Positions 18,624-60,287 of a DNA stretch of 64,000 nucleotides are shown here, one piece after another. Both the position numbers and the translations under genes were made by a program. Position 1 is the first letter of the stretch. Each line of letters opens with the position of its first letter. Under the pieces are notes generated by a model. It saw only the letters and a program-made list of their open reading frames with translations. It searched no databases and was not told the DNA's origin. The DNA is taken from the NCBI GenBank assembly GCA_030696105.1, contig JAUYNJ010000001.1:134903-198902 (forward strand), read 5' to 3'. The DNA is from a bacterium (GTDB lineage: Bacteria; Patescibacteriota; Patescibacteriia; Patescibacteriales; UBA12465).

Positions 18624-18678
18624 AGTTTTAGGATATAATAACGGTATAATTATAGCAAATATTTGTAATTTTTTTATT

Positions 18679-33517: not shown

Positions 33518-34639
33518 CTAATTTCTAATTGGCATTACAATATATAAATAGTTCTCATCGTCAGTAGTGCTTACAGCACAAGGGGTGTTGTTATTAATAA
33601 TCTTAATACTAACTGTATCACTCTCAATAATATTTAACCCATCAAGTAAGTAACGATAATTAATCGTAATATCGTTATCATCGCCGCTCAGGTCTCCACT
33701 TAAATCAATTGAACTCTCACCACTTTGCCCTGATGAAGAAAAAATATTAACTAATCCTTTTTTAAACACCAGCGAAATATCCTGCACCCCAACCCGAGAA
33801 AAAATTGATGATGCTTTTAAGGCTCTAATTAAATCTTGTCTTTTAACTACCATTTCAGTTTTATACTTATCAGGGATAATTTGTTTATAGTCCGGATATT
33901 GACCATTAATAAGGCGTGAGATTAATTCAACCGAATCAAGTGCAAATAATATTTGATTGTCAGCAATATAAATTTTTAAGATATCACTTTCGATTGCTTG
34001 AGGGTCAGCACTAATCCCAGAAATAATTCTTAAAACCTCCTGCACTGTTCTTGCTGGGACAATAACCCTACCTTCGTTTATATTACCACCTTTAACAGCG
34101 AGTTTTCGCTCTGACAGACGATAGCTATCAGTTGCCACTAGTGTTAGGTGCTCCTCATTAAATTCAAATAGAACCCCTGACAACTCTAAGCGGTTGTCAT
34201 TATTAGCAACGGCGAAAGCAACTCCACTTAAGGCCTTTTTAAAATCAAAAATATTAAACTCAGCATATCGTGAGCGATCAATTACTGGGATTAAAGGAAA
34301 CTCCTTAGCTGATTCTCCTTTTATTTTTGTCTTATAGTTACCACACTTCAGCGAAGCCTCATCCTCCTTCTCATTAAATTCAATCTTTTCTGAAGGTAAT
34401 AGGTTTACATAATCACTTATAATCTTTGCATCAACTGTTGTTTCCCCAAGCTCCTCCACCTTTGCTCTTAGTTGATGAGTGATACCAATCTCTAAATTAG
34501 TGCTAACCAACTCAAGACCACTCTCATTTGACCTTATAAGGATATTATTAAGAATAGGTAAGTTTATGTTTTTATTATTAATGTGACTAACAACTGCTAA
34601 TCCTTTTTTTAAGTTCTCCTGCAAGCAGATGAATTTCAT
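33518..34639 (-). CDS. dnaN: DNA polymerase III beta sliding clamp
   Basis: 373 aa with a DnaN-like N-terminus (MKFICLQENLKKGL...). Directly downstream of dnaA. Confidence 0.9.
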   Translation of the reverse strand: MKFICLQENLKKGLAVVSHINNKNINLPILNNILIRSNESGLELVSTNLEIGITHQLRAKVEELGETTVDAKIISDYVNLLPSEKIEFNEKEDEASLKCGNYKTKIKGESAKEFPLIPVIDRSRYAEFNIFDFKKALSGVAFAVANNDNRLELSGVLFEFNEEHLTLVATDSYRLSERKLAVKGGNINEGRVIVPARTVQEVLRIISGISADPQAIESDILKIYIADNQILFALDSVELISRLINGQYPDYKQIIPDKYKTEMVVKRQDLIRALKASSIFSRVGVQDISLVFKKGLVNIFSSSGQSGESSIDLSGDLSGDDNDITINYRYLLDGLNIIESDTVSIKIINNNTPCAVSTTDDENYLYIVMPIRN

Positions 34640-34901
34640 ATATATTATATAATTTATATATATTTAATAAATAATAACAATAAGGGGTGGGGACAATTCA
34701 AAATTGATTGATTCTTTCGCTACTATTAGATGTGAACGCCTGTGATTTAGGTTCTGTGTAGACGGTGTAATTAGGCTTATATCAGGTGGACAGATTCCTG
34801 AGCTATTTAATAAGTGACGCTTGTTAACTATTAGTTAGACCTCTATACACAGCGACATGCACAGTATAAGTAGTGCTTACTAACAGGTAGTCCACAGACT
34901 T
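34640..34901. promoter_or_regulatory. candidate oriC module: AT-rich unwinding element plus DnaA-box-like 9-mers in the dnaA-dnaN spacer
   Basis: A 45-bp pure-AT tract at 34640-34683. DnaA-box-like sites (consensus TTATCCACA): CTATACACA 34843-34851 (7/9), GGTGGACAG 34785-34793, AGTCCACAG 34889-34897, TGTGATTTA 34741-34749. Confidence 0.4.
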
Positions 34902-36299
34902 TTAGTATAATGGGTTGGCGTATAGCTGCTTAATGGACTCTAGGTCTTGCTTTAACTTCTCATTATCATTCTCCTTTACCTCTCTAAGAATTTTGTTATA
35001 AGCGTGCATGGCGGTGGTGTGGTCTCTTCCACCTATTTCTTGGCCGATACTTGGATAAGAGGAACTCAGCTCTTCACGAATTAAGTATATAGCGACCTGC
35101 CGGGGGCCAACCAACTCTTTACGGCGGCTATTACCAGATATTTCTTTCAGACTAACTTCATAAAAACGTGAAACCGCTTCAATAATTTCCTTAGCGGTAA
35201 GTGACTTTGCTTGTAAACTGGAAACATAATCACTTAAAGCGTTTCGAACACTCTTTAAAGTTGGCACCGAGTTGCTTAATTGGTGAATAACAACAACCTT
35301 ATTTAAAGCACCTTCAAGCTCACGAATATTATTCTGAACATTATTTGCGATATAAATTAAGACATCTTTATCAAGTGGAAAACCCTTTTCAATTGATTTG
35401 CGCTCTAAAATTGCAATTTTAGTCTCCATATCAGGTTTCCCAACATCGGCAACCATACCAGACTCAAAACGAGATATTAATCTTTTTTCAATCGCTGGGA
35501 TTGACTTGGGTGGGCGATCTGAGGTCATTACAATCTGTTTATCTCCCTGCTGTAGTTCATTAAAGGTATGAAAAAACTCTTCTTGAGTACCGTCTTTTCC
35601 ACCCATGAACTGGACATCATCAACTAATAATAAATCAACGTTGCGGTAAATATTTTTAAAGTCTTTCGCTTTTCCAGTTTGAACAGCCTGAATATAATTA
35701 TTCGTAAACTTTTCACTGGTTGCGTATAAAATTTTATCAGTATGTTTAGCAACCTCGTTGCCGATGGCTTGTAGGAGATGGGTCTTACCTAATCCAACAC
35801 CACCATAAATAAATAAAGGGTTGTAAGCCTTGCCTAGATTATTTACTACTGCACGGCAAGCAGCGTGAGCTAATTCATTTCCACGCCCAACCACAAAATT
35901 ATCAAATACATATTTAGGATTTAAACCAAAGCGATTAGCGGTAACAGCCTTTACAGTGGTGTCCGGAGTTTGAATTTTAGATTCAGAAACAGAAGCATCC
36001 TCAGTATTTTTTATTTGACGCACATTTAAACCAATATTATTTGAGCCATGGCGCAACTCAATTTTATAAATAATCTCGTGCAGTTTATGCTTCGTAATAT
36101 TTTCTAAAGAGTTTACAATATTCTTGTGATACTTTTCTTCCAACCATTTTTTTACAAATGCGTTAGGTACACAAATAATTGCCCGTCCATCTTCGAAGGA
36201 TGACAGGAAGGTATCTTTAAACCATGTTACAAAATTAACCCGAGAAAGGTTAATCTCTAACTCGCCTAGGGTTGCTTGCCAAATTTGATCATTATTCAT
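34902..36299 (-). CDS. dnaA: chromosomal replication initiator DnaA
   Basis: Walker A GGVGLGKTHLL, AAA+ sensor motifs, and a C-terminal DNA-binding helix (HTTAMHAYNKI). Confidence 0.95.
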   Translation of the reverse strand: MNNDQIWQATLGELEINLSRVNFVTWFKDTFLSSFEDGRAIICVPNAFVKKWLEEKYHKNIVNSLENITKHKLHEIIYKIELRHGSNNIGLNVRQIKNTEDASVSESKIQTPDTTVKAVTANRFGLNPKYVFDNFVVGRGNELAHAACRAVVNNLGKAYNPLFIYGGVGLGKTHLLQAIGNEVAKHTDKILYATSEKFTNNYIQAVQTGKAKDFKNIYRNVDLLLVDDVQFMGGKDGTQEEFFHTFNELQQGDKQIVMTSDRPPKSIPAIEKRLISRFESGMVADVGKPDMETKIAILERKSIEKGFPLDKDVLIYIANNVQNNIRELEGALNKVVVIHQLSNSVPTLKSVRNALSDYVSSLQAKSLTAKEIIEAVSRFYEVSLKEISGNSRRKELVGPRQVAIYLIREELSSSYPSIGQEIGGRDHTTAMHAYNKILREVKENDNEKLKQDLESIKQLYANPLY

Positions 36300-36465
36300 A
36301 AGCCTGATGTTTGTTTCTTTATTATAATGTATAAATACAGGGCTAACAAGCGATTCCTATGTTTACAAGGTGTTTATAATAAGTGCATAACTATTTCAGC
36401 TAAGATTGTTGACCTTTTAAAATATTAGTGTTATGTTAGATATAATTATTTAGAATCATTGTATT

Positions 36466-36603
36466 ATGCCCAAAAGAACGTATCAACCAAATAAGAAGCG
36501 CGCCTCTAAGAAGCACGGGTTCCTGAAACGCATGAGTACTAAGGATGGGCGTGATGTTTTGAAGCGCCGCCGCGACAAAGGACGCGAAGTATTGTCTAAA
36601 TAA
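36466..36603 (+). CDS. rpmH: 50S ribosomal protein L34
   Basis: Translated by hand: [45 protein letters not shown]. It is below the 60-aa cutoff of the ORF track. Confidence 0.9.
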
Positions 36604-36616
36604 CTGGCTTTTCGCC

Positions 36617-36952
36617 ATGTTGCCAAGAAAATACAAATTATCTCTCAATAAAGATTTTGAAAAAACATTTAAGGCCGGCCGTAGTGTATACGGGCGGTTT
36701 TTAGGCTTTAAAATCATCAAAAATAATCTAGACTATTCTAGATTTGGCGTAGTGTTAGGAGTAAAAATAGAAAAAAGTGCAGTTAAAAGACATGTGTTAA
36801 AAAGGCGCGTTTATACAATATTAGAGAAGGTGCAGCTTAATTTATCAATTCCTTCTGATTGTGTTATAATTGCTTTAGCTGGAATTAAGGACGCCACAAT
36901 CACTGAACTTAGGCACGAAATTCTAGAAACGTTCGCTAAAATCAATAAATAA
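36617..36952 (+). CDS. rnpA: ribonuclease P protein component
   Basis: 111 aa and basic. Position between rpmH and yidD. Confidence 0.85.
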
Positions 36953-36956
36953 CGAT

Positions 36957-37214
36957 ATGCTAAAGCTGGTTTCTGCAATAATCGGCAATTTTTTGGTTTC
37001 CGTAATTAAGGTTTACCAAAAAACACTCTCTCCAGACCACGGGGTATTCAAATATAAGCATCCCTACGGTTTTTGTCGTTTTCATCCGACCTGCTCAAAT
37101 TATAGTATTCAGGCAATTGAAAAATATGGGCCACTTCTTGGCTCGCTAAAGGCGACCTGGCGGGTGTTGCGCTGCAACCCATTTAACAAAGGCGGTGAAG
37201 ACCCATTAAAATAA
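36957..37214 (+). CDS. yidD: membrane protein insertion efficiency factor YidD
   Basis: [24 protein letters not shown] ... [12 protein letters not shown]. Confidence 0.9.
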
Positions 37215-37218
37215 CATT

Positions 37219-37971
37219 ATGATCTACTTATTTAACACAATTTTTTACCAACCAATCTTCAATTTACTCGTATTCTTGTATAACTCAGTTACTTTTCAAG
37301 ATTTAGGTATTGCAATCATTCTTCTTACGATAATTATTAAGCTGATTCTTTGGCCATTATCAAGAAAGTCAATCAAGTCACAGCAATCATTACAAACACT
37401 TCAACCCAAGATTGATGCTCTCAAGGCCAAGCACAAAGGTAATCAACAAGAGATGGGTAAGGAAATGATGGCGCTTTATAAAGAGCACAAAATTAATCCT
37501 TTTTCTTCTTGTTTGCCTTTAATTCTACAATTACCTTTCTTTATTGCGGTGTATCAAGTTTTGCGTAAGGGTCTTGATAACAACTTTGAGATGCTATACC
37601 CCTTTATTACTAGACCAGAAGTTATTAACCCCTTCCTACTAGACTTCTTAGATTTATCTAAACCAAATATTTATCTAGCGGTCTTAGCTGGTGCGGCGCA
37701 GTTCTGGCAAGCAAAAATGATGATGGCTAAGCGTGTCGATGTAAAAGCTGGGGGCGAGGGGTCAAAAGATGAAAACATGGCAGCAATTATGAGTAAGCAG
37801 ATGGTTTACTTTATGCCCGCCTTAACTGTGTTTATTGGTATTACCCTCCCGGGTGGACTAACACTTTACTGGCTAACCATCACCTTGTTGACCGTGTTAC
37901 AACAAGTACTGATGGCAAGAAAACAACCAAAAAATGACCCACCAGCCATTGAGGGTCAAATCATTAAATAA
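37219..37971 (+). CDS. yidC: YidC/Oxa1-family membrane protein insertase (short form)
   Basis: 250 aa with 5 TM helices. Last gene of the rpmH-rnpA-yidD-yidC cluster. Confidence 0.85.
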   Translation: MIYLFNTIFYQPIFNLLVFLYNSVTFQDLGIAIILLTIIIKLILWPLSRKSIKSQQSLQTLQPKIDALKAKHKGNQQEMGKEMMALYKEHKINPFSSCLPLILQLPFFIAVYQVLRKGLDNNFEMLYPFITRPEVINPFLLDFLDLSKPNIYLAVLAGAAQFWQAKMMMAKRVDVKAGGEGSKDENMAAIMSKQMVYFMPALTVFIGITLPGGLTLYWLTITLLTVLQQVLMARKQPKNDPPAIEGQIIK

Positions 37972-37983
37972 ATATATTTGTAC

Positions 37984-38010
37984 AAAAAAACCGGGTCAAC
38001 CCGGTTTTTT
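37984..38010. terminator. bidirectional rho-independent terminator
   Basis: aaaaaaaCCGGGTcaACCCGGtttttt. Overlaps the stop codon of the convergent minus-strand gene. Confidence 0.65.
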
Positions 38011-38752
38011 ATATGAATCCTCTTTCTTTACCAACGATTACATTTATCTTTTGTGGAATTATACCCACCTCTGTGGGTAAAGGAATTGTAACTGAATTAT
38101 CGAGGATTAATTCACCCTCTCCGGAAATCTTAATATTATTGCTTGTTAAAAATGTGTTATCCTCACCACGCCCACTGATCACCAGATTTAAATCATTATC
38201 ATAGGGATCAATTCTGTCCTTACAGAATAAATTTAAATCATCGTTAAGGTTAATGATTTTAATTGTAGTTTTTTTAGTAAGCTCAAGGGTGTATTCTTCA
38301 TTAATACTCAGCTGGGCACTGCTACTCGTGATTTCTGCTTTATTTAAGAAGATATTATTACCAGCTATACCAATGTCAATTTTTTTAATACGTCTCGCCA
38401 GCAAGATATTGCAAGCATCTTCCTCTTTTTTTATACCGAGTGAAGTGGCAATTGAATTATTGTCACCGATTGGAATAATTGAAAATAGAACATCTTTCTG
38501 GAAAAAACCGTAGGCTTTGTTGGTTATCATTGCACTAATAACCTTATTTGCCGTTTCATTATTGCCCACCGCAATAATATTTTTTATACCGTTCTTAATT
38601 TCTGCCTGTATTACATCACGGACATTTTTTATAGAGCCTAAACGAATGATCTTGCCATTAAGGCCAAGGTCAGTCAGCCTGATCTCGATACGATTTAAAG
38701 CGCGGCGATAACGGCCCTTATTTAAATAGTCGTCGTAAATGTAAGCATTCAT
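38009..38752 (-). CDS. DAGK_cat/NAD-kinase-like lipid kinase family protein with degenerate GGDGT motif
   Basis: IIAVGNNETANKVISAM (in place of GGDGT) and IIPIGDNNSIATSLGI. Length and layout resemble YegS/BmrU-like kinases. Confidence 0.45.
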   Translation of the reverse strand: MNAYIYDDYLNKGRYRRALNRIEIRLTDLGLNGKIIRLGSIKNVRDVIQAEIKNGIKNIIAVGNNETANKVISAMITNKAYGFFQKDVLFSIIPIGDNNSIATSLGIKKEEDACNILLARRIKKIDIGIAGNNIFLNKAEITSSSAQLSINEEYTLELTKKTTIKIINLNDDLNLFCKDRIDPYDNDLNLVISGRGEDNTFLTSNNIKISGEGELILDNSVTIPLPTEVGIIPQKINVIVGKERGFI

Positions 38753-38766
38753 ACAGCAATTAAGCG

Positions 38767-39168
38767 CTATTCAGCCTCCTCGACAGCTTCAGATTTTTTA
38801 TCAGCTCGTTTAGCATCAGAGGCAGAGACGAGAATTTGACCAGTAATTGAAGCGCCGCGTTCGATGGATATTTCACCACACTGAACGTCACCGGCAATTT
38901 TTGCAGTTTTGCCTATTGCCAAATAGCGACGAGCTTTAATGTTACCACTGATTTCGCCGTTAATTAATGCTTCATTTGCTTCAACGTTGGCATTTACGCG
39001 CGCTTTTTCACCGATGAACACATTAGCCTCAGTTTTTAGGCTACCCTCAAGGAATCCTTCGATGACAATGTCTCCTTTACCATTAAAATTTCCTTTAACG
39101 CGAATCGAAGCACCAATAATTGTTTCGGCGTCTTTCATACGCTCCAATTTGTTGTCTTTGCTAAACAT
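38767..39168 (-). CDS. bactofilin (DUF583) polymer-forming cytoskeletal protein
   Basis: 133 aa with beta-helix repeats (VIEGFLEGSLKTEANVFIGEKARVNANVEA...). A TTGACA-N17-TAAAAT promoter sits at 39254-39282 on the minus strand. Confidence 0.75.
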   Translation of the reverse strand: MFSKDNKLERMKDAETIIGASIRVKGNFNGKGDIVIEGFLEGSLKTEANVFIGEKARVNANVEANEALINGEISGNIKARRYLAIGKTAKIAGDVQCGEISIERGASITGQILVSASDAKRADKKSEAVEEAE

Positions 39169-39253
39169 AAATTTAAATAATCCGGTCCATTAACGAAACG
39201 GATGTGCAATTTAAAAGGCAATGTAAATATAGTTGTTAATTAGAATTGCTTAT

Positions 39254-39282
39254 ATTTTAGTATATATATTGTAAGTTGTCAA
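39254..39282 (-). promoter_or_regulatory. sigma70-type promoter TTGACA-N17-TAAAAT for the bactofilin gene
   Basis: Minus strand: TTGACA 39282-39277, TAAAAT 39259-39254. Confidence 0.4.
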
Positions 39283-39366
39283 AAATTTAGTTAATGTTAT
39301 TGCAATAAGTTCAGAATATAAGGGTTGTAAAAAAAATTAATTTCGGTTATTATTATTCTTGACCTG

Positions 39367-39438
39367 GCCCTTGTAGTTTAATGGATAAAACAAGAATCTC
39401 CTAAGTTCTAGATCCAGGTTCGATTCCTGGCGAGGGCA
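39367..39438 (+). tRNA. tRNA-Arg (anticodon CCT)
   Basis: Acceptor GCCCTTG/CGAGGGC, D-stem GTTT/AAAC, anticodon loop CTCCTAA, T-arm CCAGG-TTCGATT-CCTGG. Confidence 0.85.
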
Positions 39439-39511
39439 CCCACTTGCCTATTGACAAATATAGATAATTATAGTGTTAAGTAACAATCCACCGTTCTTCG
39501 CAGAACATTAT

Positions 39512-39585
39512 GGGCCATTAGCTCAGTTGGCTAGAGCGCTTCCATGGCATGGAAGAGGTCAAGGGTTCAAGTCCCTTATGGTCCA
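39512..39585 (+). tRNA. tRNA-Ala (anticodon GGC)
   Basis: Acceptor GGGCCAT/ATGGTCC with the G3:U70 alanine identity pair. Anticodon loop ATGGCAT. T-arm AAGGG-TTCAAGT-CCCTT. Confidence 0.9.
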
Positions 39586-39589
39586 CACT

Positions 39590-39619
39590 AAGAAAGACTT
39601 TTATAGTCTTTCTTTTTTT
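39590..39619 (+). terminator. rho-independent terminator after tRNA-Ala
   Basis: AAGAAAGACTtttatAGTCTTTCTTttttttg. Confidence 0.6.
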
Positions 39620-39655
39620 GTACTTAAACCACATTTATCTCGTCATCGACAGTTT

Positions 39656-39671
39656 TGTTCTACGCAGAACA
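39656..39671. repeat. palindrome unit 2 (TGTTCTACGCAGAACA)
   Basis: Seen directly in the sequence. Confidence 0.7.
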
Positions 39672-39767
39672 ACCTAAAGGAGCCATCTACCTCGACAAGT
39701 GACGCAATTATACAATAATAAACACCAAATTATTAACTCAGAGCACTTAAATAGCTACTAACAGCAT

Positions 39768-39783
39768 TGTTCTGTGCAGAACA
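39768..39783. repeat. palindrome unit 3 (TGTTCTGTGCAGAACA)
   Basis: Seen directly in the sequence. Confidence 0.7.
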
Positions 39784-39973
39784 CCGGTCAATATCAAGTA
39801 AATTATATTTTTTATGGCTATTTAAAAGCGTTGGCATGATAAATTCCTGCCAAATTATTCTAGCGGCGCCACTATTTGATTTCTCGTTAAATTATCAATG
39901 CGCTGTCAGCAAATATGGGCAGCAAAGCAATCCTTGTTCGTTGTTTGATGATTAAGATCTATTTTATCTGCGT

Positions 39974-39989
39974 TGTTCTACACAGAACA
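39974..39989. repeat. palindrome unit 4 (TGTTCTACACAGAACA)
   Basis: Seen directly in the sequence. Confidence 0.7.
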
Positions 39990-40191
39990 ACACTATAAAT
40001 CATCATCGTGCGTTTAATGTACGAGCTATGAGATAGCAGCAGAGATCTAAATATCTAGCGACTTATTATTCGTCGAACAAGTTAAAGCTATATATTGGCG
40101 TAATTAATTCTGCTTTGCTAAATAACTTATTCTTATATGCAAAATAATTACTTGCGAATAGTGTTCTGTTAACGTTAATATCCTTAGATTT

Positions 40192-40207
40192 TGTTCTTTA
40201 CAGAACA
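40192..40207. repeat. palindrome unit 5 (TGTTCTTTACAGAACA)
   Basis: Seen directly in the sequence. Confidence 0.7.
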
Positions 40208-40269
40208 AGCTCTAGAAATAATATCATCTTCTAGGACTTGCACCTGAAACTATTTTGTGTGCAAGCAAT

Positions 40270-40285
40270 TGTTCCACAAAGAACA
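40270..40285. repeat. palindrome unit 6 (TGTTCCACAAAGAACA)
   Basis: Seen directly in the sequence. TGTTCCACA is also 7/9 to the DnaA box TTATCCACA. Confidence 0.7.
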
Positions 40286-40391
40286 AAGCTAATACAGCTG
40301 TAAATCCTAATAAGACAATTAATCACACGCCAAGTGGGGGTTAGATACAGTCATTAATGGGCTTGTGGAATTTATCTATAATAAATATAAC

Positions 40392-40407
40392 TGTTCTGCG
40401 TAGAACA
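40392..40407. repeat. palindrome unit 7 (TGTTCTGCGTAGAACA)
   Basis: Seen directly in the sequence. Confidence 0.7.
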
Positions 40408-40444
40408 TCCGTAGTATTAGGGACAATAAAGGCTGAGGAGGTGC

Positions 40445-40460
40445 TGTTCCGCGTAGAACA
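40445..40460. repeat. palindrome unit 8 (TGTTCCGCGTAGAACA)
   Basis: Seen directly in the sequence. Confidence 0.7.
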
Positions 40461-40587
40461 CTGTTTTTATTACTAACATTAAACAAATACTATAAAAGTA
40501 TGCTAAAATTAGCGCAATATTGAAGCTTTGCTTTTTAAATATTTAAACACTATAATATTAGTATTGAAATTAAAAATTAAACTAAAT

Positions 40588-50330: not shown

Positions 50331-51038
50331 TTATTTTACTTCTTCAAGCACTTCGATGGTGGCACGCTTGACGCCAAATTGTCTGGCATCTGCGTATTCA
50401 AGCATCCAAATGTCGACACGATCGGTATAACGTCTATTCATGCGATCGCGAACAACGAAGACACGGTCGCCGAATAATTCTGGAATACGTATCTTTGTAC
50501 CGAATTTCAGAAAGTTGGCGGCTACAGTATCTTCAATGCCATGTTCACAGACATTGAAATTATTGGCCGTGATACAAGGAGTGCTATCAGTTTGAGCCTC
50601 AAGTGAGTTATAGGCAGTCATAGAGTGGGTGCTGGTGCGTACAACGCGGTACTCGGGTTCTGTTTTGACTTGTTCTGTCTCATCTGTAATTTCAAGCTTT
50701 AACTCTGGGGCTGGTTCTGGCTTAATACCGACATATGGCAACTCTAAGGCTGCACTGGCCTGACTCTCTGCATTTTCGATTAATGCTGCCACAATCGGTG
50801 AGGCTGCACTCTTACTCATGACGCCAAGCTTAACGACGTCTTCTTTAGCCATTGCCTCAGCCGCTAGGACGGGGGCGAAGAAAAACATGAATTGGAACAC
50901 ACAAACAACGATTAGTCCTAAGACTTCTCGCTGGCGTCTACTAAGAGGCACTAAGTCCTCGCTCATCTTGATGATTTTCATAGCAGCGTAGGTTAATTTA
51001 ATCAAACAAAAAATCCCGACTATATAATTGATAAACAA
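50331..51038 (-). CDS. 3D-domain (MltA/RlpA-like) cell-wall-associated protein
   Basis: C-terminal 3D domain FGTKIRIPELFGDRVFVVRDRMNRRYTDRVDIWM. N-terminal TM anchor. Confidence 0.6.
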   Translation of the reverse strand: MFINYIVGIFCLIKLTYAAMKIIKMSEDLVPLSRRQREVLGLIVVCVFQFMFFFAPVLAAEAMAKEDVVKLGVMSKSAASPIVAALIENAESQASAALELPYVGIKPEPAPELKLEITDETEQVKTEPEYRVVRTSTHSMTAYNSLEAQTDSTPCITANNFNVCEHGIEDTVAANFLKFGTKIRIPELFGDRVFVVRDRMNRRYTDRVDIWMLEYADARQFGVKRATIEVLEEVK

Positions 51039-51229: not shown

Positions 51230-52060
51230 ATGAAAAAAGTAGCAATTTTGTTTATGCTTATCGTTGTGACGATTTGCGTAAACGCTCAAACCCGCCAGCA
51301 AATTAAGGCGGAAAAGAAAATCCGAATAGAACTATCTCAGCTGTATGCGCAACTAAGGGTAGTTAACAGCAGAATTTCAGGTCTCGCCTCCGACACGGCT
51401 AAAATCTTTGAACAAAAACAAAGACTTAACGCCGCTATTAATGGTGGTGCAATCACCGGGGAGCAGGAGTTCGCCTACAAGAATCAGCTTGGCAAAATTG
51501 AGACGGTTTTACGATCGGCTCGTACTAAAACAAACTCTTCACACTACCAAGGTCTTAAGACTGAGGAAATGCGTCTGCAGTTTCGCATCACTGAGCTCCA
51601 GCTGAATCTGCGAGATTTCACCGACAAAACGGTAAAACAAGCCTACAAAGACGAAATCCCACGCGAACTAACAGTTACAGAGGAAAAACGTCGTAAACGC
51701 GGCAACAACATCCGTCGCGAAGAGCTTGGCTATAAAAAGCTCGAGGCTACCACGGTGAACGCGGATCCAGTTCAAGGTTATCTTGGGTTAATATGGAACC
51801 AAACCAGGTACACCCCAGCACTGTTTGTCATCAAGGACGCTAGCGGACGCGATGTTGATAAAGGAACGTTTTTTCTCCAACCCGGAGAAAGTGTTGAAGC
51901 ATACTTGCTTCCTGGCCAGTATATCGGCGTTGTCAAAGTACACGGTCAAATATCGGGCAGTTCCATGATTAAATCGGAACCTTCTCAAAAGTATATTGAC
52001 GCCGGTAAAGGCAAAAACCAATATCATTGGTTTCTAACAAAAACCCGTGACGGTATCTGA
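51230..52060 (+). CDS. hypothetical secreted protein (276 aa)
   Basis: Signal peptide MKKVAILFMLIVVTICVNAQ. Coiled-coil-like N-terminal half. No recognisable family. Confidence 0.45.
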   Translation: MKKVAILFMLIVVTICVNAQTRQQIKAEKKIRIELSQLYAQLRVVNSRISGLASDTAKIFEQKQRLNAAINGGAITGEQEFAYKNQLGKIETVLRSARTKTNSSHYQGLKTEEMRLQFRITELQLNLRDFTDKTVKQAYKDEIPRELTVTEEKRRKRGNNIRREELGYKKLEATTVNADPVQGYLGLIWNQTRYTPALFVIKDASGRDVDKGTFFLQPGESVEAYLLPGQYIGVVKVHGQISGSSMIKSEPSQKYIDAGKGKNQYHWFLTKTRDGI

Positions 52061-52162
52061 AGAGCGTCTCGCAATAACGAACGTATAAGCCATTATCTAA
52101 TAATGGCTTTTTTTCTATCAAAAAAGGCATTTGTAAAATGCCTTTTTAAGTAACACGATTTA

Positions 52163-52594
52163 TTACACACCGACAACCCCGCCGTTATTTGTGCTACCCC
52201 CCGTCATCGGCAACTCTCTGAAGATAAAGGTGGTGATGGCGAAGGCGGCGAGAATGATGATTAGGCCGATAATTGAAGTCTTTAAAGTATGCTTAGCTTT
52301 AGTGACCGCTTCTTCATTTCCAGACGCAGTCATCCAGCGGTAGCCAGTAAATATCATTAGAACTAAGAATATAATACCGAGTAAACTTAAAATCACTTTA
52401 ATCAGTGTGGCAATCATGTAACTTAGTGAAGTGTCGCCGAGTTGGGCGGTTGTTTGCATTGCAGCGGCTGGGCCGCTTATATTATCTATATAGTTAGTTC
52501 CTCCAGTAGTGGTGTTCTGAGCTAGCACAAGAGCAGGTAAAACAAGTAGCGCGACAACGAAGACAAAAACGGTGTATTTAATAGTTTTACTCAT
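52163..52594 (-). CDS. TrbC/VirB2-like pilin-family protein (tandem paralog F)
   Basis: Signal peptide; GIIFLVLMIFTGYRWMTASGNEEAVTKAKH; second TM helix. I took the start at ATG 52594 (MSKTIKYTVFV). Confidence 0.65.
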   Translation of the reverse strand: MSKTIKYTVFVFVVALLVLPALVLAQNTTTGGTNYIDNISGPAAAMQTTAQLGDTSLSYMIATLIKVILSLLGIIFLVLMIFTGYRWMTASGNEEAVTKAKHTLKTSIIGLIIILAAFAITTFIFRELPMTGGSTNNGGVVGV

Positions 52595-52598
52595 ATAT

Positions 52599-53027
52599 TT
52601 ATAATTTAGCGATAATTTCGAAGAGAACAAAGGTCCAAATGCCCCAGGCGCTGAGAACTATTATTAAACCGATAACCGCGCTGGTTATTATTTTTTTTGC
52701 CTTTGATACGGATTCTTCGTTACCAGACGCCGTCATCCAATTGAATCCAGCATAGATAATTAAGACAACAAAGATAATGCCCAGCAGACTTAAGGCGGCG
52801 TTAACTATTGTGCCGATAGTTTTGGGTAAGGTGTTTTCATCGGCAGTGTTATAGGGCCCAGCTGCACCTGGGCTGCCAGTCCCTACCTTTTCTAACATTT
52901 GCAGGGGATTAGCGTCGGCACTAATGGTGCCAGTATTTGCAGTTTGCGCAAACACGAAATAAGGCAAAACCATTACAGCTGTGAGAATAATTAAGGTCAG
53001 AACCGGTTTTAAAGCTTTAATTTTCAT
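52599..53027 (-). CDS. TrbC/VirB2-like pilin-family protein (tandem paralog E)
   Basis: GIIFVVLIIYAGFNWMTASGNEESVSKAKK. Confidence 0.65.
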   Translation of the reverse strand: MKIKALKPVLTLIILTAVMVLPYFVFAQTANTGTISADANPLQMLEKVGTGSPGAAGPYNTADENTLPKTIGTIVNAALSLLGIIFVVLIIYAGFNWMTASGNEESVSKAKKIITSAVIGLIIVLSAWGIWTFVLFEIIAKL

Positions 53028-53036
53028 ATGAAAAAA

Positions 53037-53435
53037 TTAGGTAACGAGATTAATTACAAAATAAGAAATCGCGTAAGCCGACAAAATTATAATTAAACCG
53101 AGCAATGACTGCACGATGATAGTTCTGCCTTTTTTAGTTTTTTCTTCATTACCAGCGGCTGTTAAGTACAAAAATCCACCGTAAATAACAAACAAAACAA
53201 AGATAATGCCTAATAAGGAAATAATGGCAGTGACAATTCTTCCAGCTAGCGACTCAACGGTGATTCCAGGCAGATAACCGCCGCCTTGCTCAGCAACTGT
53301 CTGCAGAGGCTTATTGGTGTCTCTTTTGAAGGCATCTTTAAGGGTTGGCGCAGCTAATACATCATTCACAAACAACGTAAAAAAGGCAAAACTGCCGATG
53401 ATGTAGTGAGAAACAGTTTTTATAGAAATATTCAT
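53037..53435 (-). CDS. TrbC/VirB2-like pilin-family protein (tandem paralog D)
   Basis: GIIFVLFVIYGGFLYLTAAGNEEKTKKGRT. Confidence 0.65.
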   Translation of the reverse strand: MNISIKTVSHYIIGSFAFFTLFVNDVLAAPTLKDAFKRDTNKPLQTVAEQGGGYLPGITVESLAGRIVTAIISLLGIIFVLFVIYGGFLYLTAAGNEEKTKKGRTIIVQSLLGLIIILSAYAISYFVINLVT

Positions 53436-53439
53436 GCAC

Positions 53440-53844
53440 TTAACTCTTGGTAGTTAATACTAGTTGTAAAACAAAGTAGCTGATTGCATAAGCTGCAAGC
53501 ACAATAATTAAACCAATGATAGATTCTGTGAGTAATTCTTTTGCTTTACGTACTTTTTCCTCGTTGCCTTGGGCTGTCATCCAGGTGATGCCAGCATAAA
53601 TTATTAAGGCTAAAAAGATAACACCGAGGACGGAAATAATTACTGTAATGATTTTAGAAACATAACCTTCAAGCGTCGGGGCAGAAGCGCCAATATCATA
53701 ACCAGCGGCAGCGCCTGTTTTGTCGAGTCCACTCTGCTCACTAAAATTATAAGAGCCCCCATCTTGAGCGAGAGCTAAAACAGGAGCGAATATTGAAGAG
53801 GCAATAATTAAGAAGGCGAAGATGGAGCCAAGTACCCTTTTCAT
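53440..53844 (-). CDS. TrbC/VirB2-like pilin-family protein (tandem paralog C)
   Basis: GVIFLALIIYAGITWMTAQGNEEKVRKAKE. Confidence 0.65.
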   Translation of the reverse strand: MKRVLGSIFAFLIIASSIFAPVLALAQDGGSYNFSEQSGLDKTGAAAGYDIGASAPTLEGYVSKIITVIISVLGVIFLALIIYAGITWMTAQGNEEKVRKAKELLTESIIGLIIVLAAYAISYFVLQLVLTTKS

Positions 53845-53847
53845 AGA

Positions 53848-54252
53848 TTAAATTAATTTATCACCAACAAAGGCGGTAATTGCGTAGGCAGCCAGAACGA
53901 TAATAAGACCAATAATTGCATTTATCATTAAATCTTTGGCTTTCGTAACCTTTTCACTGTTGCCTTGGGCGGTCATCCAACTAAGTCCGGCAAAAATCAT
54001 CAGCACTAAGAATAAAACGCCGATAAAAGACAACACCAGCCCTATAAGTGAGCCGACTCTGGTGGCTAAAAAGTTGTCGCTGCTAGCTCCGACCTGATCT
54101 TTGTAAGCATCAACCATTCCGGCTGTTGCATCGAGCCCGTACTTATCAGGTTCTGTCAGTGCGGAAACCGTTGTGCCTATAAAAAAACCGGCAAGCAAAG
54201 CACAGGTTAAGACAAAAGTTGATACGATTCTGGTAATTTTCGTACTAATCAT
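53848..54252 (-). CDS. TrbC/VirB2-like pilin-family protein (tandem paralog B)
   Basis: GVLFLVLMIFAGLSWMTAQGNSEKVTKAKD. Confidence 0.65.
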   Translation of the reverse strand: MISTKITRIVSTFVLTCALLAGFFIGTTVSALTEPDKYGLDATAGMVDAYKDQVGASSDNFLATRVGSLIGLVLSFIGVLFLVLMIFAGLSWMTAQGNSEKVTKAKDLMINAIIGLIIVLAAYAITAFVGDKLI

Positions 54253-54270
54253 ATATATTATTTATTTTTT

Positions 54271-54360
54271 CACTGCTCTGCATACCAGCGAAGCTGATTT
54301 TCAGAGCAGTGGCCCCTGTTTTAAACAAGGGCCGTGCTTTTCTAAAATCGATTTTAGAAA
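54271..54360 (-). promoter_or_regulatory. hairpin cluster between pilin paralogs A and B (terminator/attenuator-like), including a perfect 22-bp palindrome
   Basis: 10-bp inverted repeat CACTGCTCTG...CAGAGCAGTG (54271-54311). Imperfect GGCCCCTGTT...AACAAGGGCC (54311-54333). Perfect palindrome TTTCTAAAATCGATTTTAGAAA (54339-54360), immediately 3' of the paralog A stop. Confidence 0.4.
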
Positions 54361-54365
54361 CTTAA

Positions 54366-54767
54366 TTACCCGTTGACGATCTGACCTCCAGTCGCCTCGA
54401 CTAATTCTCTCAAGATGAAGGTGGCGATACCCCAGGCAGACAAAATGATGACTAAGCCGATAACACCAGCGCCCATGAGCTTTCTGGCTTCAGCAACCTT
54501 TTCTTCATTTCCACCTGCAGTCATCCATTTGAAACCAGCAGCAAGAATGATGACAACGGCGATGATGCCCAAGAAGAGCATGGCTACGTTGATTAATCTA
54601 GCGACGGTTTCTCTTGGATCGGTGTTGGTTAAGCCGTTGTCTCCAAAGCCTGTTTCGATTTGTTCAAGGCCTAAGTTGAGGTTGCCCTGTGCAAAAGTTA
54701 CAGCAGGCACCATTAAAAAGGAGAGCATGGCAAAAGCCATTAAGTATTTTACGATTGTTTTTTTCAT
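54366..54767 (-). CDS. TrbC/VirB2-like pilin-family protein (tandem paralog A)
   Basis: GIIAVVIILAAGFKWMTAGGNEEKVAEARK. Confidence 0.65.
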   Translation of the reverse strand: MKKTIVKYLMAFAMLSFLMVPAVTFAQGNLNLGLEQIETGFGDNGLTNTDPRETVARLINVAMLFLGIIAVVIILAAGFKWMTAGGNEEKVAEARKLMGAGVIGLVIILSAWGIATFILRELVEATGGQIVNG

Positions 54768-54870
54768 AAATTCACCACCTTTCTAGTTGTTGATTGTTTA
54801 CTAACGTAATCATATTTTATCATATGTAAGTAGCAAAGACAAACAATTGGAGTTATGATAAGATATATTT

Positions 54871-56466
54871 ATGACTAAAAATTACCAAAAATTGTCAATA
54901 GTTCTCGGCTTGGGCCTATTTTTTGTGGGTATGTTTATTTTAGCCTTGGTAAATTCCTACTCATATTCAGATAACGATTTAGGCTGGCACTTACGTATTG
55001 GTAATGATATTGCTGTTTCAGGGGTGGCGCCGACCATAAACTATTATAATTATACCCTTGCTGGGGATAAATGGGTTGATCACGAGTGGCTTCTAAATCT
55101 CGCGATGTTTAAGGTTTTCGAGTTTGGCGGCTTTTCTGGTTTACATATTATATTTGCTCTGCTGGTATTACTTATTGTATATCTAGCCTGGCAGAGGACG
55201 AGAGAATTTAATGGTAAGTCCATCGCTGGCAGCGTTATTAGCCTGGCTCTAATCGCACTTGCAATATGGGCGAGCCGGCCTCATCTTGGCATTAGGGTAC
55301 AGGAATTTGCCTTGTTACTAATTCTACTGTTGCTCTACGCGATTGATTTGTTCCCGCTTAAAACTAGATTATTCTGTTTTTTACCATTAGTCTTTATATT
55401 CTGGGCAAATATCCACGGTAGCTTTATTTTAGGCTTGGGTATTTTATTCGCTTATAGTGTTTACCTGTGGGCGCAGCCACTCTTACGTAGAATTGCATTC
55501 TTACATAATCTATTACATTCAAAATATAGTAAACAAGACAAAATAATCTCTAGTGTTGTCCTGTCGCTATCTCTGTTAGGTACCTTAATTAATCCTTACG
55601 GAGTAAAGTTATATGCTTTCTTGGGTGGCTATACCAACACTTTTTACATGAAGCATATTTCGGAGTGGCAAGGTCAATCTTCAATTCCTTTATACTATCC
55701 TCAGCTCGTTTATTTAGCTATTTTTGTTTCTTTTGTTGGTATATTTCTTTATATCAATCGTGGCAATAAAAATAACCAGTCTCTTTGGGACTGGGGCGTG
55801 TCACTTTTGTTTTTTGTTTTAGCTCTACGGTCACGGCGCCACTTTCCTATATTCGCTTTTGCCTCCTTACCCCTACTAGTTTTGGCCGTAAAGCAGATGA
55901 TTGCCGGCGCTCAGCTTAAGTTAAGTAACAGGTTAAAAAAAATCATTACCGTTTTAATGATCGCAGCTGTCTTACTGGCTTTCATATCCTTAGCCATTCG
56001 CTTGCCTGTTAAACAAGGTAGCATTAATGACGGATGTGAGACAAAATATCCGTGTGCTGCTGTAAGTTTTTTGAAACAGCAAACAGAAATGCAAGATTTA
56101 AGACTGTTAAACGAGTTTAATTGGGGCGGGTATTTACTCTACGCTTACCCGGAAAGACAAATATTTATTGACGGACGCATGCCGCAAGCGTCTTATAAAG
56201 AACATACGATTTTAGAAGAGTATTCTCAGTTCAAAGTCGCAGACACAGACTTTCGGGCCTTACTTACTGAGCATGACATCGGGCTCGTGCTCTTATATTC
56301 GTCAGACAGACAAGTTAAAATTAGTAAATTCGAGCAGTTATTTCTACATATTGAACCAGAAGAGGTGATAGTGGACAGTTATTTGAGAGATTATTTGTCA
56401 TATTCCCCAGCCTGGGAAGAAATTTATAGAGATAATCTGAGTATTGTATTTAAGCGAAAGAAGTAA
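54871..56466 (+). CDS. large polytopic membrane protein (possible GT-C-type glycosyltransferase / polymerase-like), hypothetical
   Basis: 531 aa with about 12 TM helices followed by a roughly 150-aa C-terminal soluble domain. No motif I can name confidently. Confidence 0.35.
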   Translation: MTKNYQKLSIVLGLGLFFVGMFILALVNSYSYSDNDLGWHLRIGNDIAVSGVAPTINYYNYTLAGDKWVDHEWLLNLAMFKVFEFGGFSGLHIIFALLVLLIVYLAWQRTREFNGKSIAGSVISLALIALAIWASRPHLGIRVQEFALLLILLLLYAIDLFPLKTRLFCFLPLVFIFWANIHGSFILGLGILFAYSVYLWAQPLLRRIAFLHNLLHSKYSKQDKIISSVVLSLSLLGTLINPYGVKLYAFLGGYTNTFYMKHISEWQGQSSIPLYYPQLVYLAIFVSFVGIFLYINRGNKNNQSLWDWGVSLLFFVLALRSRRHFPIFAFASLPLLVLAVKQMIAGAQLKLSNRLKKIITVLMIAAVLLAFISLAIRLPVKQGSINDGCETKYPCAAVSFLKQQTEMQDLRLLNEFNWGGYLLYAYPERQIFIDGRMPQASYKEHTILEEYSQFKVADTDFRALLTEHDIGLVLLYSSDRQVKISKFEQLFLHIEPEEVIVDSYLRDYLSYSPAWEEIYRDNLSIVFKRKK

Positions 56467-58510: not shown

Positions 58511-58912
58511 TTAAGTGACAGTCGAGGCTGTGTAGGTGCCGTCCCAGCTTATGCCCATGGTATCTAGAACAAGGCGGATAATAACAAAACTCGCGAAGAC
58601 AATGACAAGGCCGATAGTGGCGGCAATCAGAATATTTTTAGCCTTGCCAACCTTTTCGCTGCTGCCTGAAGAAATTAAAAACATTAAACCACCATAGACA
58701 AACATGAGTAGCGCGAGTGAGCCGACAACACCTAAGATTATACGCGAAGCTCTAATGGCGAGAAGCACCATGTCATCTAAGTCATAGTTACCTTGCGCGT
58801 ACTTTGGATCTTCAGTGTTGATAATAGACTGGGCAAGAGTAGGCTCCGGAAGAGCAAGTGGAATTAAAAAGAGGGCGAGAATAAAAGCGGCGATTGATAA
58901 TTTTTTTATCAT
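58511..58912 (-). CDS. divergent TrbC/VirB2-like pilin-family protein (paralog H)
   Basis: GVVGSLALLMFVYGGLMFLISSGSSEKVGKAKN plus a second TM helix. The start is at ATG 58912 (MIKKLSIAAF), which avoids overlap with the upstream gene. Confidence 0.55.
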   Translation of the reverse strand: MIKKLSIAAFILALFLIPLALPEPTLAQSIINTEDPKYAQGNYDLDDMVLLAIRASRIILGVVGSLALLMFVYGGLMFLISSGSSEKVGKAKNILIAATIGLVIVFASFVIIRLVLDTMGISWDGTYTASTVT

Positions 58913-58916
58913 AGTA

Positions 58917-60287
58917 TTAATTAACCGTTTGCTGTACTTTGGCAGCGCCGGCATTGATAGCGTCTATAATCTTATCTAAATTTTCACTCGCAGATTTTAT
59001 CATTTCAGCAATAGCGGTCTCAGCTGCTTGCGCATTCTTTCCTTTATACCAACTTTTAGCGGTTAAAAGTTGAGAAGCAAAGACGCCGATTTCATCGTCA
59101 TTTCTCTGTTCGGAGACTAATGAGCGTAGGGCGGTTGGCTTACCGCTTATTTCTAAATACTTCTTAGCCTGCTGTTCTTTGGTTGCAAATATTACGAAAT
59201 CCCAGGCCTCATTTGGATATTTACTTTTCTTTGAAACCGTTTCAATCCAGTAGTTGGCAAAGTTTACTTCAACTGGGCTCCCTTCAATCTGTGGCAATTT
59301 GCTAACGGAAAAGTTTAATTTAGGAGACATCGCTTTAATAGTCGCGACATGATACGAATAGCCAAACATCATTGCTAGCTTGCCGCTGGCAAATAATTCA
59401 ATTGAGTTTGGTAATTCATCGTTCCAAGAATAAACTTCTTTCCCGGGATTGGCAAAATCGATATAGAAGCGTAGCGCCTCTAATCCCGGGTTATATTTAT
59501 TTTCTCTGTTTGCTTGGGGTAAGACGTGAAATAAGACACGACTTCCTTCCATCATAGTCGCACCATTTTGCATCATTAAAATAGAAAGAATGTCACTATA
59601 GCGCTCGATATTAGTGCCCCCGCCTAAAGCAATGCCGGACTGAACAAGTCCGAGAACAGCATCTTGGCGGGTTAATTTCTTTACGTTTTGCTGAAACTCT
59701 TTATTCCAGTATAAAGGGGCCTGCACAATACTAGCGTTATTAAAAAGGTCGCGGTTGTAAAATAAAGCTAAGGTGTCTACTGACAGAGGCAGGCCGTAAA
59801 CCTGATTATCACTCATAACAACATCGCCGTAGACGACGTCAATAAAGCGGTCCTTGATTTCTTTTAAGGTCGGGCTTTTAACAGTTTGTAGTTGCGGAAT
59901 AACTTCTTTTTTAATAGAGCCCTGTTCAATTGGATAAGCCATAGTGATGTTATCGGGCATCGGGGTTAATTTATTCAGGTACTTTGGCATCCAAGTGTTG
60001 TGGATTGAAAGAATGTCAGGACCGCGATCTTCGGCAAGTGCGTTTAGCAATTCAACTTCATACTCATCGTAACGGAGTTTGCGATAAGTTATATTAATAT
60101 TTGGATGAATGGTGCGGTAAGATTCAATAATAGGTGCGAGTGTATCGGGTCCGTCAAAAACACGCCAGTACGACAAGGTTATCGGCTGCATGGCTTCTTG
60201 AGTTTTTTTATCAACTGTTTTACAACCAAATCCGGTTGTGAGCACAAAAATTCCGATTAAAAATAGGGCGAGAGTTTTTTTCGGCAT
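58917..60287 (-). CDS. ABC-transporter extracellular solute-binding lipoprotein (family 1)
   Basis: Lipobox LTTGFGC. 456 aa with the typical SBP fold length. No permease or ATPase genes are adjacent in the window. Confidence 0.65.
   Translation of the reverse strand: MPKKTLALFLIGIFVLTTGFGCKTVDKKTQEAMQPITLSYWRVFDGPDTLAPIIESYRTIHPNINITYRKLRYDEYEVELLNALAEDRGPDILSIHNTWMPKYLNKLTPMPDNITMAYPIEQGSIKKEVIPQLQTVKSPTLKEIKDRFIDVVYGDVVMSDNQVYGLPLSVDTLALFYNRDLFNNASIVQAPLYWNKEFQQNVKKLTRQDAVLGLVQSGIALGGGTNIERYSDILSILMMQNGATMMEGSRVLFHVLPQANRENKYNPGLEALRFYIDFANPGKEVYSWNDELPNSIELFASGKLAMMFGYSYHVATIKAMSPKLNFSVSKLPQIEGSPVEVNFANYWIETVSKKSKYPNEAWDFVIFATKEQQAKKYLEISGKPTALRSLVSEQRNDDEIGVFASQLLTAKSWYKGKNAQAAETAIAEMIKSASENLDKIIDAINAGAAKVQQTVN

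Follow-up and report, generated by a model that had tools for sequence, protein, structure and literature searches.

Six Tandem Genes Form One Transcription Unit

The region analyzed here is a 64,000-nucleotide (nt) stretch of GenBank assembly GCA_030696105.1 (contig JAUYNJ010000001.1, positions 134,903-198,902, forward strand), which we term the window and number from its first nucleotide. Its subject is a tandem array of six small pilin-like genes at 52163-54767. An open reading frame (ORF) scan of the window found six consecutive minus-strand ORFs in this interval, as the original prediction, made from the DNA alone, had described. We named these genes A to F in the order of transcription; two dispersed copies elsewhere in the window are termed G and H (Table 1). 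Gene A is set off from B by a spacer of 113 base pairs (bp), and the remaining gaps are 3 bp (B-C), 4 bp (C-D), 9 bp (D-E), and 4 bp (E-F), in agreement with the spacing that had been proposed. The length range of 132 to 155 amino acids (aa) given earlier for the six products holds for A to E but not for F. The 155-aa version of F starts at a TTG at 52630 and overlaps E, whereas the ATG at 52594 yields a 143-aa protein that begins 4 bp from E; this ATG is also the start chosen when the identical DNA was annotated independently. The TTG start is probably wrong, lying too far upstream, and F is likely 143 aa long. In pairwise comparisons the six array proteins are 26-44% identical (mean about 37%), and the DNA encoding the paralog cores is 64-74% identical, with no gene-conversion tracts.

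Only roughly 20 nt separate the last hairpin of an RNA element in the A-B spacer (described below) from B, so that no promoter can be accommodated there. Because the B to F gaps are only 3-9 bp, there is no promoter space before B, and a terminator is found after F only, the genes constitute a single operon, as the original prediction had thought probable. The six array genes are one transcription unit with a promoter-like region at its head and a terminator at its end.

Table 1. Positions of the pilin genes, their expression signals, and other features in the window
Feature	Position	Strand	Length	Details
Pilin gene A	54366-54767	-	133 aa	PF18895 41.0 bits; proposed major subunit
Pilin gene B	53848-54252	-	134 aa	PF18895 35.6 bits
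Pilin gene C	53440-53844	-	134 aa	PF18895 36.5 bits
Pilin gene D	53037-53435	-	132 aa	PF18895 34.9 bits; most divergent member (YLTAAGNEEKTKKGR)
Pilin gene E	52599-53027	-	142 aa	PF18895 51.5 bits
Pilin gene F	52163-52594	-	143 aa from ATG	PF18895 41.0 bits; PF04956 21.1 bits, E-value 3.7e-4
Promoter-like region and 5' leader of A	54768-54845	-		-35-like TTGTCT; extended -10-like TGATAAAAT; leader ATCAACAACTAGAAAGGTGGTGAATTT; putative function
Shine-Dalgarno sequence of A	54772-54782	-		AAAGGTGGTGA, within leader ATCAACAACTAGAAAGGTGGTGAATTT
Three-hairpin RNA element	54270-54365	-		A-B spacer; covariance model R1, 93.5 bits
Intrinsic terminator after F	52120-52147	-		GGCAUUU-loop-AAAUGCC, then U run
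Pilin copy G	6557-6979	-	140 aa	PF18895 40.2 bits; upstream of nusA; closest to A (41%)
Pilin copy H	58511-58954	-	147 aa, or 133 aa from M15	PF18895 31.5 bits; directly after SBP_bac_1 lipoprotein gene
SBP_bac_1 lipoprotein gene and pilin H	58511-60287	-		No ABC permease or ATPase close by
Multi-pass membrane protein, divergent from A	54871-56466	+	531 aa	No Pfam or NCBIfam match
Conserved syntenic ORF	50331-51038	-	235 aa	Downstream of array
Conserved syntenic ORF	51230-52060	+	276 aa	Downstream of array
Bactofilin-domain protein	18571-19818	+		
Bactofilin-domain protein	38767-39168	-		Beside origin region

The Array Proteins Are Members of the PF18895 Pilin Family

The original prediction had placed the array proteins in a TrbC/VirB2-like family of type IV secretion system (T4SS) pilins and had proposed profile hidden Markov model searches as a check. 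In these searches all eight copies scored above the gathering threshold of the Pfam family T4SS_pilin (PF18895), with 31.5-51.5 bits against a cut-off of 26.6, and the six array proteins did so with E-values of 1.6e-8 to 1.1e-13; the outcome named as contradicting the assignment, no relation to T4SS pilins, did not occur. The architecture of PF18895 members, in which a signal peptide precedes two hydrophobic helices with a short polar loop between them, was likewise evident from hydropathy, cleavage sites, and an AlphaFold2 (AF2) model of E. Specifically, each copy begins with a hydrophobic signal sequence that ends in a cleavage site with small residues at -3/-1, read from the sequence as mostly A↓Q, and this is followed in all eight copies by a variable segment of 23-38 aa. 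In the six array proteins, the first hydrophobic helix carries the motif G(I/V)(I/L)F...WMTA.GNEEKV.KAK, from which A and D depart slightly, and hydropathy and loop sequences show that in all eight copies the two hydrophobic helices flank a short charged loop bearing GNEEKV.KAK. Thus, the common plan that had been described for the six proteins, a signal, a variable segment, a motif helix, and a second helix, is present in each. The AF2 model of E contains the signal helix, a short helix (residues 41-50), and a helical hairpin (66-99/104-139) with a predicted local distance difference test score (pLDDT) of about 90.

The relation to VirB2 proper was apparent at the level of the family. In an alignment of 68 family members, 35 matched the TrbC/VirB2 family PF04956 at an E-value of 0.01 or below (best, 7.2e-8), and therefore PF18895 and PF04956 are linked at the sequence level. 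This indicates that the array proteins form a family related to PF04956 TrbC/VirB2 rather than direct members of it. A second link was to NCBIfam NF045849, the Mbov_0395 pilin-like conjugal transfer protein of mycoplasma integrative and conjugative elements (ICEs). Its 40-bit cut-off was passed by F (47.3), E (46.9), G (43.2), and D (40.2) and missed by A (36.1), C (34.5), B (27.7), and H (24.8); the array shows no ICE context and has housekeeping neighbors. The exact E protein is filed at NCBI under the name "pilin." None of the six array proteins matched VirB3 (PF05101) at an E-value of 1 or below. The class III signal of type IV pili, G↓F(M)xxxE, is not present in these proteins, whose N-termini are of the Sec type, with A↓Q or A↓A sites.

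Gene Order in the Array Is Conserved Across Species

One genome per species was scanned with an alignment of A orthologs, which gave 335 relatives and 79 loci. Two independent assemblies, L002 and L004, carry a six-gene array with the same flanking genes as the window, and all-against-all scores between the window and these two loci revealed positional orthology, from A matching gene 1 through F matching gene 6. Across the 79 loci, six tandem pilin genes were present in 53, seven in 8, and eight to eleven in 6; loci with fewer than six were mostly ended by contig ends. We then scored positional orthology in 49 clean six-gene arrays, again with one genome per species. The best match at position 1 was A in 49 arrays, at position 2 B in 48, at position 3 C in 46, at position 5 E in 49, and at position 6 F in 49, and only position 4 was ambiguous (D in 12 arrays, C in 30). 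The most conserved paralog is A, which is 74-75% identical to its L002 and L004 orthologs and has a core with 70% mean identity over 50 species. Because one-to-one orthologs keep their order at five of six positions in 49 species-level genomes, the array is an ordered module of long standing rather than a recent expansion. The earlier description of the array as a lineage-specific expansion is not borne out, the paralogs being ancient.

The Variable Segment Evolves Fast Under Purifying Selection

The segment preceding the motif helix had been predicted to be diversifying. Mean ortholog identity over 50 species was 18-32% in this N-terminal segment versus 46-70% in the helical core. Between the closest genome pairs, the nonsynonymous rate (dN) of the segment was 2-6 times that of the core. 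The ratio of dN to the synonymous rate (dS) was 0.05-0.18 in the segment and 0.025-0.087 in the core, a comparison that, at dS values of 0.3-1.7, resolves segment-wide averages and not site-level positive selection. Hence one part of the prediction held and the other found no support: the segment is the fastest-evolving part of the protein, but the selection analysis that had been proposed, run here on orthologs, gave dN/dS values well under 1 and no evidence of segment-wide diversifying selection. The N-terminal segment evolves fastest and is, segment-wide, under purifying selection. It also contains conserved motifs specific to individual paralogs, for example IE(T/Q)GFGDNGL in A; the segment is thus paralog-specific as well as less constrained.

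These data bear on a reading in which the six genes encode equivalent major pilins that can stand in for one another and are kept to vary an exposed surface for host range or evasion. The paralogs do differ most in the exposed N-terminal segment, and the faster evolution of that segment among orthologs is what this reading would predict; moreover, PMC12102498 (Quinonero-Coronel et al. 2025) offers antigenic or host variation as the rationale for such arrays. A similar role has been proposed for the VirB2 paralog arrays of Bartonella and Anaplasma. However, several features speak against antigenic variants that can replace each other: the genes are one-to-one orthologs in a fixed order in 49 species, each paralog keeps its own N-terminal motifs, dN/dS is low, and gene-conversion tracts are absent. 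In addition, the array is one transcription unit with no switching element, and strong translation signals are found on A alone (see below). We therefore consider variation among equivalent pilins improbable. The same data dispose of chance reading frames or an assembly artifact, since the proteins match curated models with E-values down to 1e-13, dN/dS is far below 1, and the array recurs in independent assemblies from other samples, with 79 species-level genomes represented; this explanation is effectively refuted.

Gene A Has Conserved Expression Signals and a Covarying RNA Structure Directly Downstream

The window, L002, and L004 share exactly the same 27-nt leader of A and promoter hexamers, even though identity between their proteins is only about 75%. 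Nearly all 79 loci have AACTAGAAAGGTGGTGA, or an GGGGGGTGA/GGGAGGTGA variant of it, ahead of gene 1. A Shine-Dalgarno-like site precedes A alone among the 42 genes of the window; B to F and the dispersed copies have none. At the far end of the operon, terminators with a hairpin and U run equivalent to that after F follow the last array gene in L002, L003, and L004. As a general feature of the window, Shine-Dalgarno sequences are nearly absent from its 42 gene starts, and A/T-rich sequence precedes most starts.

The A-B spacer, which the original prediction had called hairpin-rich, folds with a predicted energy of -44.4 kcal/mol, compared to -22.2 ± 3.3 kcal/mol for shuffled sequences (z = -6.8). 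It contains three hairpins: hairpin 1 is UUUCUAAAAUCGAUUUUAGAAA, hairpin 2 is GGCCCUUGUU..AACAGGGGCC, and hairpin 3 is CACUGCUCUG...CAGAGCAGUG. In the first, the sequence itself is conserved, and its loop (AAUCGAUU) contains a TCGA that does not vary. In related genomes all three hairpins are kept while the stem sequences of hairpins 2 and 3 differ, and RNAalifold analysis of 26 sequences identified compensatory changes in 20 of 25 pairs. A covariance model built for the element, R1, gave a single significant match in the window (Table 1). Within the 0.98 Mb searched, R1 matched 47 sites at E-values below 5e-4, one in the window and 46 in related loci, and at E-values of 0.05 or below it matched 61 of the 79 species-level loci. 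Every match lies directly 3' of a pilin gene, usually gene 1, and none was found elsewhere in the 0.98 Mb. In the model-fitted alignment, 90.7% of cells were paired versus 43-55% in slid controls, double (compensatory) changes occurred in 29 of 34 pairs, and the covariation score was 0.63 versus 0.11-0.18; this alignment leans toward model R1, and its margin over the controls is large. Thus, the spacer is indeed hairpin-rich, and it harbors a covarying three-hairpin element.

Because G-U pairs are frequent and antisense scores are much weaker, the structure is assigned to the mRNA strand. A search of the spacer against Rfam returned no relevant family at an E-value of 1 or below. We considered the hairpins as canonical intrinsic terminators and rejected this assignment: none of the three is followed by a U-tract, unlike the canonical terminators after F in four genomes. 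The element may instead act as a decay barrier, a processing site, or a partial terminator. A pairing of CUAGAAA in the leader with the 5' arm of hairpin 1 (UUUCUAG) was also considered and dropped, as many species have the leader motif and lack hairpin 1.

Genomic Surroundings and Dispersed Copies

A profile built from the six array proteins and searched over the window found exactly two additional copies, G and H. The eight copies that had been counted before are therefore those of the array plus 6557-6979(-) and 58511-58954(-). The annotated start of H is probably too far upstream; translation may start at M15 (position 58912), which would leave a 4-nt gap after the stop codon of the preceding solute-binding protein (SBP) gene, as in L004. 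This pairing recurs: a pilin ORF lies directly 3' of the SBP gene in 45 of 46 loci, and the SBP gene always precedes the six-gene array, in the same orientation and 1.0-5.8 kb upstream of it. In the distant lineages L072 (1741-5258) and L079 (3061-6399), the SBP gene heads or sits inside the pilin array and is flanked by proteins of 300-400 aa with a C-terminal T4SS_pilin domain.

The gene divergent from A encodes a 531-aa protein whose homologs are all annotated as hypothetical and all come from Patescibacteria. Its AF2 model (pLDDT 92.6) has the GT-C glycosyltransferase fold, the best fold matches being the protein-glycosylating STT3/AglB/PglB, DPY19, and ArnT (E-values of 1e-8 to 1e-4), and residues D34 and D36 are invariant. 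Of about 71 related loci, 52 have this gene at the same position, with a PMT_2 gene adjoining it in L002 and L004. The protein may glycosylate the pilins or the envelope. On the other side of the array, we tried the 235-aa ORF as a 3D-domain, MltA-like wall hydrolase that could act like VirB1, and found no support for it in Pfam, NCBIfam, or PDB sequence searches.

The closest named relative of E, at 82% identity, is from Candidatus Falkowbacteria HGW-Falkowbacteria-2, which the NCBI taxonomy places in the Parcubacteria group of Patescibacteria; the organism is a Falkowbacteria-like patescibacterium. The window is chromosomal, with a transfer-messenger RNA (tmRNA), nine tRNAs, and genes for SmpB, trigger factor, NusA, H+-PPase, RecQ, SHMT, FolD, PBP1, PPDK, and Lgt. 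The dnaA/dnaN genes (33.5-36.3 kb, minus strand) stand back to back with rnpA/yidC (36.6-38.0 kb, plus strand), and beside this block, at about 40 kb, the cumulative GC skew reaches its minimum; the region 33518-40500 is the probable replication origin. A search for DnaA boxes with an E. coli-type consensus found no cluster (9 matches versus 15 expected). T4SS components often lie near dnaA according to a published remark, and the position of the array fits this. Many metagenome-assembled genomes (MAGs) with the array bear the title "uncultured Gammaproteobacteria bacterium" in public records, and for one the title is "Bacillota bacterium." Because of their gene content and their Falkowbacteria and Patescibacteria relatives, these titles look like mislabeled taxonomy.

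A Model for the Array and Its Alternatives

We favor, as the probable explanation, an operon of six old, nonredundant VirB2-like (PF18895) pilins that are used with a monoderm-type T4SS, with A as the major subunit and B to F as minor ones. In this model each pilin would be made with a cleavable Sec signal peptide and would insert in the membrane as a helical hairpin, with the N-terminal segment and the C-terminus facing outward and the GNEEKV.KAK loop in the cytoplasm. By analogy with VirB2, the subunits would then be extracted and polymerized by a VirB4-containing machine whose genes would lie in another part of the genome. The product, judging from the family and from Candidatus Southlakia epibionticum, could be a surface filament or a conduit toward the host cell. 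Expression would be graded: with its conserved promoter and strong Shine-Dalgarno sequence, A would supply an abundant major subunit, and the hairpins would shift the balance toward A over B-F, whether by shielding the A segment from 3' decay or through partial termination. The tightly packed B to F, which lack Shine-Dalgarno sequences, would yield specialized minor subunits of lower abundance. We infer this division of labor from what sets A apart: a Shine-Dalgarno sequence and leader, the RNA element 3' of it, and stronger conservation.

There is precedent for such an arrangement of hairpins. In Rhodobacter pufBA-LMX and E. coli papBA, intercistronic hairpins set subunit ratios within operons. 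As in those operons, the stem-loop cluster here directly follows the gene for a putatively abundant small subunit, with genes of predicted lower abundance later in the transcript; it differs in having three hairpins and a sequence-conserved first loop (AAUCGAUU), and its effect on decay or termination is a prediction.

A close parallel is offered by the VirB2/TrbC conjugative pilins of diderm T4SSs (PF04956), such as the Agrobacterium T-pilin, RP4 TrbC, and F TraA. Like the array proteins, these are small and have a long signal peptide and a short charged loop between two hydrophobic helices, and weak, repeated sequence matches join the families. The A↓Q signal-peptidase site also resembles that of VirB2. 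The array differs from diderm VirB2/TrbC in the extra N-terminal segment of 23-38 aa, in scoring below the PF04956 threshold, in its monoderm host, and in having no virB linkage in the window. The Mbov_0395/MMCAP2_0565 proteins (NF045849), to which D, E, F, and G are tied by scores above the cut-off, likewise belong to wall-less or monoderm lineages with MPF-FATA-type systems. NF045849 is, however, an equivalog within mobile ICEs, whereas the genes here are chromosomal, multicopy, and not part of an ICE, and A, B, C, and H fall below its cut-off.

Tandem arrays of VirB2-like genes have been published for Patescibacteria. PMC12102498 catalogs 441 patescibacterial VirB2 arrays from 383 assemblies, each with 2-11 genes and with a mean within-array identity of 25% and a maximum of 54%; Microgenomatia and Saccharimonadia are reported to have the most. 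The present array is similar in consisting of tandem PF18895/PF04956 genes of low identity, here six genes at 26-44%. It thus has the makeup of a patescibacterial VirB2 array (at least two such genes in tandem, of low identity), and proximity to virB4 is the feature it lacks. The nearest described counterpart is that of S. epibionticum ML1, in which, according to PMC10633639 (Wang et al. 2023), the T4SS gene cluster holds a series of essential predicted pilins; PMC12857230 describes these as six divergent VirB2-like pilins. Both arrays comprise six tandem, divergent, structurally similar VirB2-like pilins in a patescibacterium, and both lie close to the origin region of a small chromosome. The S. 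epibionticum array is inside the T4SS cluster SEML1_0006-0019, in the class Saccharimonadia; the array described here comes from a Falkowbacteria-like genome, and no T4SS gene was found in about 72 kb of sequence around it.

Several observations weigh against our model. No ORF of at least 110 aa in the window matched the VirB4, VirB6, VirD4, or VirB11 families, consistent with the earlier statement that VirB4, VirB6, and VirD4 are missing from it. The 8 kb past the window end holds housekeeping genes and no T4SS gene, so that none lies within about 72 kb, and VirB3 is likewise absent from the window and the next 8 kb. Copies G and H are embedded among housekeeping genes. None of the array proteins reaches the 27.9-bit gathering score of PF04956, with F the closest at 21.1 (E-value 3.7e-4), followed by A (15.7) and B (10.3). 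A Foldseek search of the E model against the PDB returned generic helical hairpins alone (best E-value, 1.3), a two-helix fold being too simple to discriminate, and a sequence-profile search of the PDB with the 68-sequence alignment gave one meaningless match, to a designed protein. A tblastn search of 72,556 plasmids with pilin E found no match. The array, 12-18 kb to the right of the probable origin on the minus strand, is transcribed head-on to replication, an uncommon orientation for genes expressed at very high levels. Finally, a pilus from a patescibacterial T4SS has not been seen, and PMC12857230 describes it as a possibility only.

Some of these points would be accounted for if the proteins were bitopic or hairpin envelope proteins without a T4SS pilus, for example a membrane or cell-wall scaffold tied to the SBP lipoprotein and the GT-C enzyme, with "pilin" reflecting distant ancestry. 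Consistent with such a role are the lack of T4SS genes within about 72 kb, the SBP-pilin pair and the position of the SBP gene within or at the head of the arrays of L072 and L079, the conserved divergent GT-C enzyme that adjoins the array, and the absence of a structural match between the E model and solved pilins. Moreover, VirB2 is normally absent from monoderm T4SSs, according to PMC12857230. On the other hand, the sequences tie the array to TrbC/VirB2 and to the mycoplasma ICE conjugal-transfer family, and in S. epibionticum the equivalent array is inside a T4SS cluster and essential (PMC10633639). Because the whole neighborhood is syntenic, the nearby SBP and GT-C genes say little by themselves and provide leads only. 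PMC12102498 reports that 1,135 of 1,948 assemblies carry a pilin gene close to virB4, which counts against a role apart from the T4SS; as the remainder do not, separation from T4SS genes is not unusual for patescibacterial pilin genes. On balance, a purely envelope-associated function seems unlikely, though less so than variation among equivalent pilins, and we favor the operon of nonredundant pilins.

A more specific form of the favored model is that the array is an ancient, ordered six-subunit module, with one major and five specialized pilins, whose stoichiometry would be set by an undescribed Patescibacteria-specific cis-regulatory RNA (the three-hairpin element) together with the unusual Shine-Dalgarno leader, and which, with the co-inherited SBP lipoprotein and GT-C enzyme, would form a host-contact or nutrient organelle and not a conjugation pilus. 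We put this forward tentatively, as a speculative extension.

Implications for the Patescibacteria

Tandem VirB2-like arrays in Patescibacteria are already known, while the fixed gene order and the RNA structure after A appear to be unreported. In the passages of the array literature that we read, we found no mention of positional orthology, of a Shine-Dalgarno sequence on the first gene, or of the three-hairpin RNA element, and we found no paper on such an RNA motif. The link to NF045849 bears on a published uncertainty, namely whether the pilin was co-opted or came in together with the monoderm-type system.

The role of the T4SS and pilin arrays of Patescibacteria is an acknowledged open question, and in the one species tested they are essential. 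The fixed number and order of paralogs across many species favors distinct structural roles over antigenic variation, and this conserved order and the covarying, pilin-specific RNA element make the question of why there are so many pilins more testable. The recurrent SBP-pilin pair and the adjoining GT-C enzyme provide concrete candidates for partners of these proteins.

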